DNA of 64,000 nucleotides from a virus (taxonomy: Duplodnaviria; Caudoviricetes), in the IMG/VR virus record IMGVR_UViG_3300037424_000485, positions 64,001 through 128,000 of that record. One strand, written 5' to 3'. Of the stretch, positions 3,972-62,733 are shown one piece after another. A program made the translations under genes and the position numbers. Each line of letters opens with the position of its first letter. Position 1 is the first letter of the stretch. Under the pieces are notes generated by a model, which saw only the letters and a program-made list of their open reading frames with translations, was not told the DNA's origin and searched no databases.

Positions 3972-4481
3972 ATGTATTTAGAACTAAGTGCAAGACAAAC
4001 AGGCAAGACCACAAGACTCATAGAACATGTTATAGAACGGCTTCAAAATGATGCACGTAAATATGTTGCTATCATAGGTATGGGCTATAGTCACACTGAT
4101 GCTATAAAGAAAAGATTCTCTCATGCCCTTCCATGGCATGAGTTTAAACATATTAGATTCTCTTCATCATATATGGGTCTGGTGCCAGAGTTATATGATA
4201 CTGTTTATTTTGATGAATTTTGTTCTCATATAAGTATTCCTATCATACCTAATGGTTATTACTCATCAACCCCCACTAGTTTAGATAATTCATTTCTTAG
4301 AGAGTTGATAAATTACAACAACGGTCATTATGAGACATACAAAAATCATAAGATCGAAGAAGATTGGATTAATAATATTGGGGATGTAAATATGGATATT
4401 GGATTTACTCTAAAAACATTCTATGATAATTTTCCCCCACCTAACAGAAGCGTAGTACCAGAAGAATTATTCCAAATGTAA
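3972..4481 (+). CDS. P-loop protein (terminase ATPase-like N-terminus) with PEELF tail
   Basis: ARQTGKTT Walker A-like and VYFDEF Walker B-like motifs; ends VVPEELFQM. Confidence 0.55.
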   Translation: MYLELSARQTGKTTRLIEHVIERLQNDARKYVAIIGMGYSHTDAIKKRFSHALPWHEFKHIRFSSSYMGLVPELYDTVYFDEFCSHISIPIIPNGYYSSTPTSLDNSFLRELINYNNGHYETYKNHKIEEDWINNIGDVNMDIGFTLKTFYDNFPPPNRSVVPEELFQM

Positions 4482-4490
4482 AGGAGAAGC

Positions 4491-5432
4491 ATGGATTCTG
4501 TATTAATTGTATGTAATGGTGCAAAACACTATGGCTTATCATCCACCATCGATCATGAAAATAGCCTTTTTGCCGATGGCGAGGTTAATGTTCGTATAAA
4601 AGACTCAGTAAGAAATAAAAAAATTACCATACTACAGGGGTTTGAGTTACCTAACACCCACTTGATGGAACTTATCATAACAATAGATGCTGCTAAAAGA
4701 AGTGGTGCTCAAGAAGTAAATGTCATAATACCCATGTTCCCTTATGCAAGACAGGATCGAGTATCGAATAGTGGATGTCCTATATCAGGCCGTGTAGTAT
4801 GTGATATGCTCAATGCTGTCAATCCTGATAGGGTTGTATGCTTTGACCTTCATGCAGATCAGATACAGGGATTTATGGGTAATAAATGTCAATTTGACCA
4901 TATACCACTCACATCATTCTTATCATACCATCTAAAACGACACATACCAAATATAGAAACTTTCTCATTTTGTGCTCCTGATGCGGGTGCGATAAAAAGG
5001 ACATCAAAGCTGAAAGATATGTGTGGGGCCGTTGATATGTGTTTTATGAATAAAATTAGAACAAGAGCAAATGTTGTTGATTCCATACAGATCATTGGTG
5101 ATGTTGAGGGTAAGAATATAATACTTGTTGATGACATAATAGATACTGGAAATACAATTTTATCAGCAATAAAAGTGTTGAGAGATAATGGTGCTAATAA
5201 TGTAAAGACTGTGTTCAGTCATGGTATATTCTCATCACCTGCATATTCTAATCTAAATGGTGAGGATATATATGTTACAGATACAATGTGTATTAAAGAT
5301 AAAGACAAAAATGAACAATTCAAACCAAAAAATCTAAATATACTACCTATAAAGAATTTTCTATTAGAACTTATATCATGTATTAATGAAAAAAAACAAC
5401 TAGGAACTTTATTTAAAAATTGGTCAGAATAA
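4491..5432 (+). CDS. prs: ribose-phosphate pyrophosphokinase
   Basis: FADGEVNVRI, PMFPYARQDR, DLHADQIQGF, APDAGA, LVDDIIDTGNT motifs. Confidence 0.95.
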   Translation: MDSVLIVCNGAKHYGLSSTIDHENSLFADGEVNVRIKDSVRNKKITILQGFELPNTHLMELIITIDAAKRSGAQEVNVIIPMFPYARQDRVSNSGCPISGRVVCDMLNAVNPDRVVCFDLHADQIQGFMGNKCQFDHIPLTSFLSYHLKRHIPNIETFSFCAPDAGAIKRTSKLKDMCGAVDMCFMNKIRTRANVVDSIQIIGDVEGKNIILVDDIIDTGNTILSAIKVLRDNGANNVKTVFSHGIFSSPAYSNLNGEDIYVTDTMCIKDKDKNEQFKPKNLNILPIKNFLLELISCINEKKQLGTLFKNWSE

Positions 5433-5560
5433 TGAAAAATTTCTTATAAATAAGTATAGAGAGACTATAAGGTTGCTCCTTTAGATGATTGTTAATCATA
5501 CTAGGATAAGAACCTTTAATCTTATCCTATCTCTTTCAAATACCTATCAAGAGGTATATA

Positions 5561-6666
5561 ATGACGGTAATAACAACAGAAGAATTTATTAAAAGATCCA
5601 AAGAAGTGCATGGCGATAGATATGATTATAGTGTATCTACATATAATGGGTTTAGAAAACATGTGAATATTGTATGTTCTATACATGGTATATTTAAACA
5701 AACCCCTGTTAAACATTACAGTGGTAATGGTTGTCATAAATGTGGACAAATCTCTTCTAATAAAAAAACACCAAAACAACAGAAGATTTCATAAAACAAG
5801 CATCCGTTAAACACAATAATAAATATAACTACATGTTGGTCGATTATATTAAATCATACAATAATATAAAAATAATATGCCCTGTTCATGGTATATTTGA
5901 ACAAACACCTAGAAGACATCTTAACGGTGGGTGCTTGAAATGTGGTATAGATATAAGAACAAAAACAACGGATATATTTATAAAAGAATCTATTATTATA
6001 CATGGTGATAGGTATGATTACTCATTAGTTGAATATATAACAGCTCATATTAAAGTTAAAATTATATGTTTGGTTCATGGTGTATTTGAACAGACACCCA
6101 AACTACATCTTAGATCGTCTGGGTGTCCTATGTGTTTGGGTATATTTATTGAAAGATATAATATTAACAATATACCTATATATCAAACCTATGTTCAACA
6201 ATTAGAATTATATGAAGATATTAGAAGATCATCTTATGATAAAAATATCCTTGAGATAAGATGCACTTATTGCAACAAATGGTATATCCCAAAATTAAGT
6301 CATGTCCAGACACGATTAAAAGCTATATATGGAAAAATAAAAGGAGAAAGCAGATTTTATTGTTCCGATGGATGTAAATCTAACTGTGATTTGTATGCAC
6401 AGAGTAAATATCCCAAAGGACATAAAATAAATAAACACTCAAGAGAAGTACAGCCACAACTAAGAAAATTAGTATTAGAAAGAGATAATTGGACATGCCA
6501 AAAATGTAGCAGTGATAAAGATTTACACTGTCATCACTACGAAGGCATAGAAATAAATCCTGTTGAGAGTGCTGATATAGACAATTGTATTACTCTTTGT
6601 AAAAAATGTCACAATGCTGTTCATAAACAAGATGATTGTAACATGAGAAGGAATAAATGTAAATAA
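5561..6666 (+). pseudogene. frameshifted HNH endonuclease with repeated Cys/His N-terminal modules (subtype A)
   Basis: ORFs 5561-5794 and 5833-6666 share the module CxxHGxFxQTPxxH...GC; adding one A to the A7 run near 5762-5768 joins them. Confidence 0.75.
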
Positions 6667-6669
6667 TGA

Positions 6670-6789
6670 CAACAATACAAAACAAAAAGTATAGTTGTGC
6701 TTCCACTGACGAATTTTATTAGTGATATTATATTATGTATAGATAACCAGAGACAATTTGGTAAAATGTTCAAGAATTGGTCTGAGTAG
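6670..6789 (+). pseudogene. displaced homologous copy of the prs 3' end
   Basis: Translates QQYKTKSIVVLPLTNFISDIILCIDNQRQFGKMFKNWSE*, ungapped 18/39 identical to the Prs C-terminus; no start codon for the segment. Confidence 0.9.
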
Positions 6790-60752: not shown

Positions 60753-60867
60753 TTATAACATCTCCTTGTAAAGGGATAGTATAACATTATACATAATAGA
60801 TGTAAATTATCATATCTTAAATAAATCTGATGGTAATATACCTTTTTTACCTAGACTTATAAATCCC

Positions 60868-61107
60868 TTATTTTCTGATCAGTATCAGACCAATAATTTT
60901 ACTATATAGATCTATAATTTCTCTCTGATTTTTGATAATTCTCTCATCCATCTCTGTATTTTGATCTGATATATGATGTGACCATATAATATACAATGCA
61001 AATATACAAAGAAATGAAGCACTATCACCTTTAAGGGCATATGAAACACCTAATAAAAACAGTATGAGGCATGTAATAATATATACCAACCTAATAAAAT
61101 TTTTCAT
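60868..61107 (-). CDS. small membrane protein
   Basis: Two hydrophobic segments. Confidence 0.55.
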   Translation of the reverse strand: MKNFIRLVYIITCLILFLLGVSYALKGDSASFLCIFALYIIWSHHISDQNTEMDERIIKNQREIIDLYSKIIGLILIRK

Positions 61108-61216
61108 ATTCTTTCCTTTCTTTTTATTGAGTTATCCTTATCAAACCCAGGGTTTTTTACTATTGTTATTGTTTATAAAAGATTGTCGTTTTATTACGAT
61201 ATTAATATTCTTCCTA

Positions 61217-62400
61217 TCAGCCTTTTAAAGCAGCGATTGGTGAAAGTTTGTATACTACTTTCACCAAATCCAGTTGGGATGAAATAACTTTTTCTATATC
61301 CTTATACGCACCAGCGGCCTCATCCAAATCAGCTTGATTTCGGATACCATGAACCACACCGATATCATCAAGACGCTTGATCTCATCCCCAATACCAATC
61401 TACGTTGAGCATCCTTGCGCCCCATTGCACGACCCGCTCCATGGGAGCAAGACATGAATGAATCTGGATTGCCTAAACCCTCGACAATATATGAGTTAGA
61501 CCCCTGAGATCCAGGAATTATACCAACTTCTCCTTTCTTAGCAGAAGTAGCCCCTTTTCGATGAACCCATACATTCTTACCAAAGTGATTTTCCGATATG
61601 CAAAAGTTGTGATGGATGTTGATCATCTCGTTAGGGAAAGATACATATTCCCCTTCATACTTATCAACACAATTGTTAACAACTTCCATGACACGGAACA
61701 TCATCTTCTTACGAGATAAGAAAGCAAATTCAGTACAATAATTCATATCAGTAATATAATCACGTCCCTCATCCGTATCCCCTGGCAGCCAAGCCAGATC
61801 TTTAGGAGCACCAGTATGCCATTTATCATTAAATTTTTGAGCTAAATTATTGTAATGCTTGGCAACTTTACCACCCAAGTTACGAGATCCAGAATGTACC
61901 ATGATCCATAAAAACCCATCTTTATCACGCTGTAACTCGATAAAATGGTTGCCACCTCCCAGAGAAGAAAGCTGATATCTTGCTGACTCATATTCAACAG
62001 CTACAGGGTAATTAAAATCTAAATCAGGCATGTCCATATCTTCTACAGGTTCTTTATTATTCCAACCTAGACCCATAGGAACAACTTGACGAACAGCGTT
62101 CATAATGGATTTTAAGATGTCTTTGGAAATAGGGCCTGAATATTCTGATTTAACAGCACACATACCACAGCCAATATCCATACCCACTGCATTAGGAATT
62201 ATCACATCCTCACATGCTATAACACCACCAATCGGCATACCATATCCCATGTGAGTATCCGGCATTAATGCTATATGGCGGTGCATAAATGGAAGGTTTG
62301 CTAAAACAGTCGCTTGGTCTATTGCTCCTTGCTCTGGCTCATTACACCAAGATTTTATAGGCACTCTATTTCCGGTTATTACTCGCATTTTATTTACCAT
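61217..62400 (-). pseudogene. rtcB: RtcB RNA ligase with a frameshift near the C-terminus
   Basis: MPDTHMGYGMPIG, VGMDIGCG, LGGGNHFIE, HSGSR, HRKGAT, SCSHGAGR; after G4 at 61387-61390 the alternate frame gives DEAAGAYKDI...PIAALKG*. Confidence 0.85.
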
Positions 62401-62451
62401 CCTTATAATTTATGATTTAATTTAAGATATATATCCATTTTTAATTCTTCT

Positions 62452-62733
62452 TTACATCTTAAATAAGTTCTCAGGCAGTATTGAAAAACAAAGATCTTTT
62501 CTTCCTTCAACACCATAATTTGCTTCAGCATGGTGTAGTCTATCCCATCCACAATATCCCTCCTCATAGGTATAATACAATGCAGCTGGTTGAAAATTCT
62601 GTATAGTATCCCATAATAATGAACATTCACGTCTATTTGTGGTATTTTCTATAAAAAACCTTTTAATTTCATTAAAACCATCTTCACTATAAACGGTTGT
62701 ATAGTTTTTCATGGTATATGTCTTTGCTAACAT
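62452..62733 (-). CDS. small hypothetical protein with PEELF-like tail
   Basis: Ends ILPENLFKM. Confidence 0.6.
   Translation of the reverse strand: MLAKTYTMKNYTTVYSEDGFNEIKRFFIENTTNRRECSLLWDTIQNFQPAALYYTYEEGYCGWDRLHHAEANYGVEGRKDLCFSILPENLFKM

Follow-up and report, generated by a model that had tools for sequence, protein, structure and literature searches.

The stretch of DNA analysed here, hereafter called the window, is 64,000 nucleotides long and corresponds to bases 64001-128000 of one virus record of 204,431 bp (IMG/VR record IMGVR_UViG_3300037424_000485), which has a G+C content of about 31% and is estimated to be 85% complete. Ten open frames of the window end with variants of the same nine-residue peptide, and eleven more such tails are found in the rest of the record. 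This peptide is a modular motif that is strictly placed at the C-terminus and conserved at the peptide level. On balance, it probably serves as a docking tag that would bring the proteins carrying it to one shared receptor. The source of the record is an uncultured, deep-branching T4-type phage. Coordinates marked "genome" follow the numbering of the whole record, all others that of the window, and peptide ends are given up to the stop codon.

The whole genome encodes 21 clear tails and a few degenerate copies. Pro and Phe are invariant in all clear tails, and nine consecutive positions (-2 to +6 around the Pro) carry information above the sampling null, giving the pattern [IYTV]-[ILV]-P-[EDS]-[EDN]-[LM]-F-x-[MLI]. 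Fifteen tails end exactly at the motif and the other six go on for one to three mostly acidic residues (E, DE, EK, G, EI or EMV). Nine tails have D, S, K or P instead of Glu after the Pro. The strict pattern proposed by the initial annotation has 13 six-frame matches in the 204-kb genome, 12 of which lie 0-3 codons before a stop. Similarly, a position-specific scoring matrix built from the 21 tails gives 26 six-frame matches at 12 bits or more, including 23 within three residues of a stop. The initial annotation had suggested looking for enrichment at C-termini over shuffled proteomes, and this enrichment was found. Within an ad hoc set of 301 genes obtained with a simple caller, the strict pattern occurs nine times at the C-terminus and never internally, versus means of 0.0 (C-terminal) and 0.075 (anywhere) in 200 residue shuffles; a slightly relaxed pattern gives 16 C-terminal matches versus 0.005. 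The recurrence of the tail is far beyond chance. Literature searches with the peptides themselves and on shared C-terminal motifs gave no published description of the motif.

Some additional copies depart from this pattern. Gln takes the place of Pro in TIQEELFRMD, which ends a 22-codon open reading frame (ORF; genome 39732-39800, minus strand), and in an internal copy, YIQKELFKI (genome 139269, minus strand). In a relative in which TGA encodes Trp, a 91-aa ORF (L018:12022-12297) ends with TIDDDLFEL, a version of the tail that lacks the Pro. Moreover, the plus-strand region 48408-48695 of the genome encodes a 47-aa ORF ending with VLDFDYIYNEC, one in-frame stop and then a 34-codon stretch whose tail is TIPEEMFKI; this may be a nonsense-interrupted gene or a case of read-through.

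Selection on the tail seems to act at the peptide level, since its codons vary synonymously (CCA/CCT/CCG, GAA/GAG, TTA/CTT/CTA/CTG, TTT/TTC) and replacements stay conservative (L/M, E/D, M/L/I), even when two bases have to change (Leu TTA to Met ATG). Furthermore, the DNA likeness among copies is limited to the 27 or so nucleotides of the tail codons, of which at most 21 are identical, and the flanks are unrelated on both sides. Since the likeness stops at the tail, the latter is not one of the repeat cassettes through which T4-type phages shuffle their early genes. Hence, two early proposals hold: the DNA of the copies is not identical, as it shows synonymous and conservative changes and a likeness that never extends past the tail codons, and selection acts on the peptide, as the tail is kept in orthologues whose bodies share only 27-41% identity. 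The choice of codons is nevertheless biased. Pro is encoded by CCA in 18 of the 21 tails and Leu by TTA in 11 of 15, which is above the expectation from local codon context (p about 0.005 each). This over-use hints that the tail-coding segments share descent and may have spread by duplication or 3'-end recombination, with peptide selection acting on top.

The bodies that carry the tail are diverse. Jackhmmer searches with the tail-trimmed carriers against the phage's own proteome linked a single pair of carriers (55044-55304 and genome 128452-128802), in agreement with the initial description of the bodies as dissimilar; they also linked the body of 13875-14138 to an untagged neighbour of 156 aa (16160-16630). 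Apart from a weak Zn_ribbon match for 36531-36779, none of the carriers belongs to a Pfam family or to an annotated PHROG family. The tail can also be absent from relatives of the same body. For instance, the carrier at genome 33689-34195 (168 aa, helical) has 86 homologues, many of them with DUF7666, and none has the tail. The carrier 3972-4481 belongs to a widespread family of phage P-loop proteins that start with MYLEIS-x-R-x-(T/S)-GKTT and have a DEF Walker B, about 40 homologues of which lack the tail. Its three closest orthologues, which come from other metagenomes (runs SRR34348087, SRR15671256 and SRR5189948) and share 41, 40 and 31% identity with it, end with LVPEDLFKM, IVPPELFQM and ILPDKLFKM. 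The protein ending with ILPDKLFKM, in which the tail sits behind an insertion of about 25 aligned residues, is encoded by a syntenic contig on which genes for phosphoribosyl pyrophosphate (PRPP) synthase and RNase H follow, as in the window. Likewise, the orthologue of 40663-41238 in the relative L017 (run SRR12601634) has a body only 27% identical but retains 9 of the 12 residues of the tail region (which ends with EIIPSNLFSMDE in the window and EIIPSELFRMDD in L017), while the clamps of the two phages are 70% identical. Since two carriers have tail-less homologues and since the tail is kept in diverged orthologues, the tail is the most conserved part of fast-evolving proteins and has been added to bodies of different origin. 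The proposal of a modular tag on diverse accessory proteins is thus upheld by unrelated bodies and by distant homologues of the same bodies without the tail.

Structure prediction agrees with this modularity in the one carrier that could be modelled well. The AlphaFold2 (AF2) model of 3972-4481, based on 33 homologues, has a P-loop domain with a predicted local distance difference test (pLDDT) above 90 up to about residue 125. The last 44 residues (126-169) have a pLDDT of 50-62, with a short helix at 164-167 over E-L-F-Q. In this model, the tail therefore trails a low-confidence stretch behind a confident domain. The solved folds nearest to this domain are ATPase domains of terminase large subunits, with weak similarity (TM about 0.5). 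Treating carriers as N-terminal fragments of split genes was rejected, as the gene that follows 3972-4481 encodes PRPP synthase and not the remainder of a helicase or terminase. A single-sequence AF2 model of 55044-55304 is all-beta with a mean pLDDT of 43 and is unusable. The residue pattern of the tails (Pro, then acidic residues, K/R frequently four positions beyond the first acid, and hydrophobic side chains at -1, +3, +4 and +6 from the Pro) suggests that the tail most likely forms a Pro-capped amphipathic helix of one to two turns. Being short, modular, conserved in a fast-evolving and poorly ordered background and present on unrelated proteins, the tail has the properties of a short linear motif.

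The tag is found outside this record in L017, in the three P-loop orthologues and probably in a protein of a distant relative. Since it occurs in these other sequences, it belongs to a phage lineage, with a strong expansion in this genome, and is not an assembly oddity. In the alignment of the clamps, the tail-bearing phages form a clade of their own (64-100% identity to the clamp of this phage), cleanly separated from the other phages. Five further relatives were retrieved through their clamp gene (28-43% identity to the clamp of this phage); their records total 356 kb, one of them being 171 kb long, and contain only one credible tail. This tail, HLPDELFVIE, ends a 107-aa protein of the relative G004, whose clamp is 35% identical (L029:5211-5534, minus strand), and the protein matches the C-terminal domain of ribosomal protein L7/L12 (Pfam, 26.9 bits for a cut-off of 25.9). 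In loci of three other relatives (L016, L018 and L019), the clamp-loader genes adjoin a conserved set of genes encoding ubiquitin-like (Ubl), ThiF and JAB proteins, and no credible tail was found there. Two scans of IMG/VR with degenerate DNA patterns revealed no other multi-tail contig, only single matches per contig, several of which are in unlikely frames. A profile of the last 45 residues run against 5.8 billion proteins retrieved only proteins of this phage, although such a profile is insensitive for a nine-residue motif.

These data are best explained by a tail that is a modular short linear motif with the sequence [IVLTY]-[IVL]-P-[EDS]-[EDN]-[LM]-F-x-[MLI] and up to three further, mostly acidic residues. 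A flexible stretch would attach it, at least in some carriers, behind unrelated folded bodies. It would act as a common docking, or address, tag that brings at least 20 accessory proteins of the early and replication regions to one shared binding groove. From the shared pattern, we infer a single receptor bound by all tails. If one receptor does read the tag, about 7% of the genes of the phage, nearly all of them without known function, would make up one functional class that can be read from the sequence. Four points weigh against such a docking tag. The receptor was not found, and binding is deduced from the pattern alone. The tag carries about 25 bits yet is almost confined to one lineage, with one credible tail in the 356 kb of relatives. 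The bias in Pro and Leu codons means that shared descent explains part of the similarity of the tails. Lastly, several carriers that start with K-V-G-D may form one fast-evolving paralogue family, in which case a conserved end needs no receptor.

The initial annotation had already proposed a docking tag to one hub and named the sliding clamp, the host RNA polymerase, a protease and the Ubl machinery as candidates. Peptide selection and a modular tag on diverse accessory proteins are supported, but none of the hubs that it named gained positive evidence. In particular, the Ubl/E1/JAB set is conserved in the L016, L018 and L019 loci without tails. Since both this set and the clamp-loader operon are conserved in tail-less loci, their presence does not track the tag. 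A more ambitious scenario, which we put forward tentatively and consider doubtful, would see the tail as the address label of a phage sorting system. A dedicated receptor, distinct from the canonical pocket of the clamp, would collect at least 20 accessory proteins, some of them stand-alone copies of domains acting as decoys or baits against host defence, and the tag would belong to a wider class of lineage-specific C-terminal address tags in large phages. Two tail-bearing proteins look like such domain copies: the terminase-ATPase-like P-loop domain of this phage and the L7/L12 C-terminal-domain-like protein of the distant relative.

Several other explanations were weighed against a docking tag. 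The conserved unit might be the DNA or RNA and its translation incidental, the element being a linker for recombination, a site for homing endonucleases or a regulatory signal; the over-use of CCA and TTA, the stretches of up to 21 identical nucleotides between some copies, the abundance of homing endonucleases and split genes in the genome and the existence of orphan tails would all fit. However, every tail is in frame and ends at most three codons ahead of a stop, their replacements are conservative even when two bases differ (TTA/ATG), synonymous variation is present without any likeness in the flanks, and the peptide is kept in orthologues with bodies 31-41% identical, so that this explanation is largely refuted and we regard it as extremely improbable. 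The tail might also be read by nothing and be the structural end (a last strand, a turn and a short helix) of one very fast-evolving paralogue family that is recognisable only at both ends. The start K-[VI]-G-D is found in at least four carriers, and further ones resemble them (genome 45877, 46225 and 47647; window 55044), two carriers share the K-V-G-D start at the DNA level, and part of the carrier set may hence be small beta-barrel paralogues. Two carriers are clear paralogues of each other, strand-like residues often precede the Pro and the codon bias suggests common descent. Nonetheless, 3972-4481 (P-loop) and genome 33689-34195 (helical, with DUF7666-like relatives) come from other families, in which most members are tail-less. 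Moreover, the segment that joins domain and tail varies in length between orthologues, and the model places the tail outside the folded domain. We regard a purely structural role as very unlikely. A degradation tag, by which a host or phage protease or adaptor would remove a whole class of early proteins on schedule, would agree with a C-terminal, hydrophobic and transferable motif on many unrelated early proteins of a short-lived type, with its exposure behind a low-confidence stretch in the one confident model and with remnants and mini-ORFs that indicate fast gene turnover. The six tails that have one to three extra residues argue against the reading of a free carboxyl end, as in ssrA-type degrons, and no ClpP- or Lon-type protease was annotated among the roughly 90 proteins scanned of this record, itself estimated to be 85% complete. 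Bacterial C-terminal degrons are not known to have an invariant Pro or a helix-like pattern. We therefore hold this function to be quite unlikely.

If the tail is a docking tag, its receptor could be the gp45-type clamp of the phage itself, the tails being extra clamp ligands and their accessory proteins a large "toolbelt". A precedent exists in T4, where gp43, gp55 and gp33 bind to the same clamp, gp45, through hydrophobic-acidic C-termini that resemble one another and can be exchanged (PMC2988020). The tails resemble these epitopes in their position and in their hydrophobic-acidic composition, with an L-F pair, and a few trailing residues are tolerated in both cases. Furthermore, one carrier belongs to the clamp-loader operon, where L017 has retained it together with its tail, and carriers are scattered among the genes for ligase, primase, helicase, polymerase and gp32. 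The clamp may also offer more than one binding site. On the other hand, the proteins of this phage that are expected to bind the clamp end differently: its DNA polymerase C-fragment ends with SKCFDIFF and its gp55 homologue (phrog_234, E 5e-24) with QKSIDYTLMR. CFDIFF and SIDYTL follow the T4 scheme (hydrophobic, Asp, aromatic/hydrophobic, hydrophobic) of the ends found in the T4 record (ASLDFLFG, PSLDFLYEAND and NTLDFLL), without the invariant Pro or the L-F-x-M of the tag. Since the expected ligands carry this other ending, the tail is not simply the clamp epitope of this phage, which appears to keep an ordinary T4-type epitope on these ligands and a second motif on 21 other proteins. In addition, the position after the acid, aromatic in T4-type epitopes, is polar or acidic in the tag, and the relatives whose clamps are 28-43% identical hold essentially no tails in 356 kb. 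A predicted complex of the clamp trimer (alignment of 19 rows) with an aligned tail segment of 34 residues scored 0.00, in a run made without controls, and speaks neither for nor against binding. The clamp as hub gained no positive evidence; its canonical peptide pocket is a possible reader but not the one that we favour, and we judge the clamp as receptor to be rather unlikely. Alternatively, the tail might copy a docking peptide of the host and target a host hub, for instance like the QL[SD]LF peptides that bind the bacterial beta-clamp. The L/M-F pair that ends the core P-E-[ED]-[LM]-F corresponds to positions 4-5 of QL(S/D)LF (PMC9690074), the two degenerate copies TIQEELFRMD and YIQKELFKI have Gln in place of Pro, and restriction to one lineage would fit adaptation to one host. 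However, Pro is invariant in the 21 clear tails while Gln defines the bacterial motif, position 2 is acidic instead of Leu, and it is hard to see why 20 different small proteins should bind the host clamp. A host hub of this kind is thus distinctly improbable, and a docking tag read by one shared receptor remains the explanation towards which we lean.

All ten tails listed for the window are present in the sequence at their listed ends; only one had been misspelled, as the tail ending at 34686 (minus strand) is LIPEEFFIL and not LIPEEFFYL. The carrier at 3972..4481 (plus strand) is a P-loop ATPase-like protein of 169 aa with a Walker A GKTT and a Walker B DEFC; its tail, VVPEELFQM, is encoded at 4452-4478. 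At 13875..14138 (plus strand), an 87-aa protein without Pfam or PHROG family ends with ILPEELFKME. The misspelled tail belongs to a 28-codon mini-ORF (34686..34772, minus strand) that is probably a remnant of a tail-bearing gene. The next carrier, at 36531..36779 (minus strand), sits immediately upstream of the gp41-type helicase gene (35142-36488) and is an 82-aa Cys-rich, zinc-ribbon-like protein ending with IVPEVLFTI. At 37230..37457 (minus strand), a 75-aa protein that has no Pfam or PHROG family ends with IIPEDMFIL. The carrier of the clamp-loader operon (40663..41238, plus strand) has 191 aa and its tail, IIPSNLFSMDE, comes after a Lys-rich stretch; an Atlas look-alike search with this protein gave no usable match. 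Two carriers lie between the halves of the split DNA polymerase gene: an 86-aa protein that starts with MKFKVGD and ends with IAPPELFTM (55044..55304, minus strand) and a 108-aa protein without Pfam or PHROG family that ends with IVPENLFDMEMV (55301..55627, minus strand). Just upstream of the gene for the polymerase N-fragment, the orphan tail GILPSDLFKI ends 22 open codons that have no start codon (60810..60878, minus strand) and is a remnant. Lastly, a 93-aa protein without Pfam match that is encoded upstream of the RtcB gene (62452..62733, minus strand) ends with ILPENLFKM. An Atlas feature search with this protein led to clusters of thymidylate-synthase fragments with a score of 0.95, but with fewer than 170 shared features, below the reliability mark of the tool, so that this is a lead only.

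The genome that hosts these carriers encodes gp45-type clamp, gp44/gp62-type clamp-loader, gp41-type helicase and gp32-type single-stranded DNA-binding (SSB) proteins, as well as a gp55-type late sigma factor, sheath and tube. Its DNA polymerase shares only about 28% identity with those of cultured T4-like phages, which are its nearest cultured relatives; a near-identity DNA search against cultured phages and a single-protein locus search gave no match. The clamp, a context gene without the tag, is a protein of 247 aa (43333..44076, plus strand; phrog_223) whose TTG start lies behind AAGGAG and whose sequence from this start matches its homologues end to end. The longest ORF, which starts with GTG at 43201 (43201-44076), is probably overlong. 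Searches of the genome with the Pfam gp45 models failed or matched an ORF of the structural module, and the clamp was located with PHROGs instead. The gene order clamp loader, clamp-loader A subunit, clamp, small ORF, ORF of about 300 aa, ThiF and JAB is conserved across the phage clade (window 38124-49140; L016, L018 and L019). This conserved order means that the Ubl-type set has long adjoined the clamp genes.

The B-family DNA polymerase is encoded by a split gene, with an N-fragment of 618 aa (58896-60752, minus strand) about 5 kb from the C-fragment of 274 aa (53047..53871, minus strand). Small ORFs, two of them tail-bearing, and a homing endonuclease separate the two halves. Homing endonucleases and split genes crowd the genome. 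About 20 paralogous proteins of 250-300 aa share a Cys motif of their own at the C-terminus (roughly H-K-Q-D-G-C-N-M-K/R-R-x-x-C), a second recurrent ending in this genome, and are HNH-type homing endonucleases according to PHROGs where tested. They are encoded at 3039-3941, 5833-6666, 7713-8612, 14228-14971 (minus strand), 42323-43177 (minus strand) and 58164-58895, with many more genome-wide. Another gene that looks split is a 93-aa ORF ending with NPFFDFS (genome 38342-38623, minus strand), whose matches to PHROG families are limited to the C-terminal part of these families, of which one carries the label NrdA-like ribonucleotide reductase.

Other protein ends of the genome were also inspected. 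The gp32-type SSB (genome 139448-140428, minus strand) ends with DDDDILDELDKMLG, an acidic-hydrophobic tip that is loosely like the tag but has a different spacing. A gp33 homologue was looked for in the genome and not found; one candidate, genome 165254-165622, which ends with KIDYIFRTR, is a baseplate wedge protein. In the tail and baseplate region, a 263-aa protein without PHROG family and a baseplate-hub-like protein end with LIPDNFF and IPVDNFFA (genome 165657-166448 and 172284-173024, both on the minus strand), which may be a separate small motif. A MoxR-type AAA+/vWA pair was sought in six frames of the genome, which is about 85% complete, and AAA_3, AAA_5 and VWA_2 gave no match; one sub-threshold VWA_CoxE match (10.7 bits) lies beside gp46/gp47-like genes. 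A census of TATAAATA late promoters was abandoned as a guide to gene timing because this motif is too frequent in an AT-rich genome to classify genes.

A loose parallel is offered by T7 gp2.5, T7 gp4 and SSB, whose acidic C-terminal tails or tip have a key aromatic residue and dock replisome proteins onto a partner. These tails are long acidic runs that end with the aromatic residue, whereas the tag is a nine-residue motif with a Pro, an L-F-x-M and up to three more residues. Moreover, the carriers of the tag are mostly tiny proteins without known function, unlike the bearers of T7 and SSB tails. Degrons of the ssrA/LAA type have a non-polar extreme end that is read with the free carboxylate, and the tag has no LAA-like end. 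Like the tag, the capsid-targeting sequence (CTS) of T4 internal proteins is short and transferable and marks unrelated proteins of a T4-type phage. However, the CTS is N-terminal and cleaved after L/I-x-E by the prohead protease, whereas the tag is C-terminal, its Glu is not invariant and its carriers are encoded in early and replication regions; furthermore, the N-termini of the carriers share no tag. The bacterial beta-clamp motif QL(S/D)LF is a pentapeptide that is typically C-terminal (PMC9690074). The tag shares with it a core ending with L/M-F, a frequent C-terminal position and a presence on many unrelated clients, but it has an invariant Pro instead of the Gln and an acidic residue instead of Leu2, and the bacterial motif does not include the hydrophobic residues that the tag conserves at -2, -1 and +6.

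The closest parallel is with the gp45-binding C-termini of T4 gp43, gp55 and gp33, which are also short hydrophobic-acidic peptides at or near the C-terminus of unrelated proteins of one phage (PMC2988020, PMC9690074). Both are modules on variable linkers, with one hub in T4 and one hub proposed here. The placement is also the same: T4 epitopes lie at the C-terminus or within about four residues of it, as do the 15 tails that end at the motif and the six with one to three extra residues. Nevertheless, T4 has three such ligands and this phage 21 or more, and the T4 core [ST]-L-D-F-L-[FYL] differs from P-[ED]-x-[LM]-F-x-M, which lacks the succession of hydrophobic, Asp, aromatic/hydrophobic and hydrophobic residues. 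Judged by its sequence, the tag lies outside the T4 epitope, bacterial clamp-motif, ssrA-type degron and T4 CTS classes. If the tag is indeed read by one receptor, the T4 principle of a shared C-terminal handle would have been scaled up in this phage and re-invented with a different peptide.

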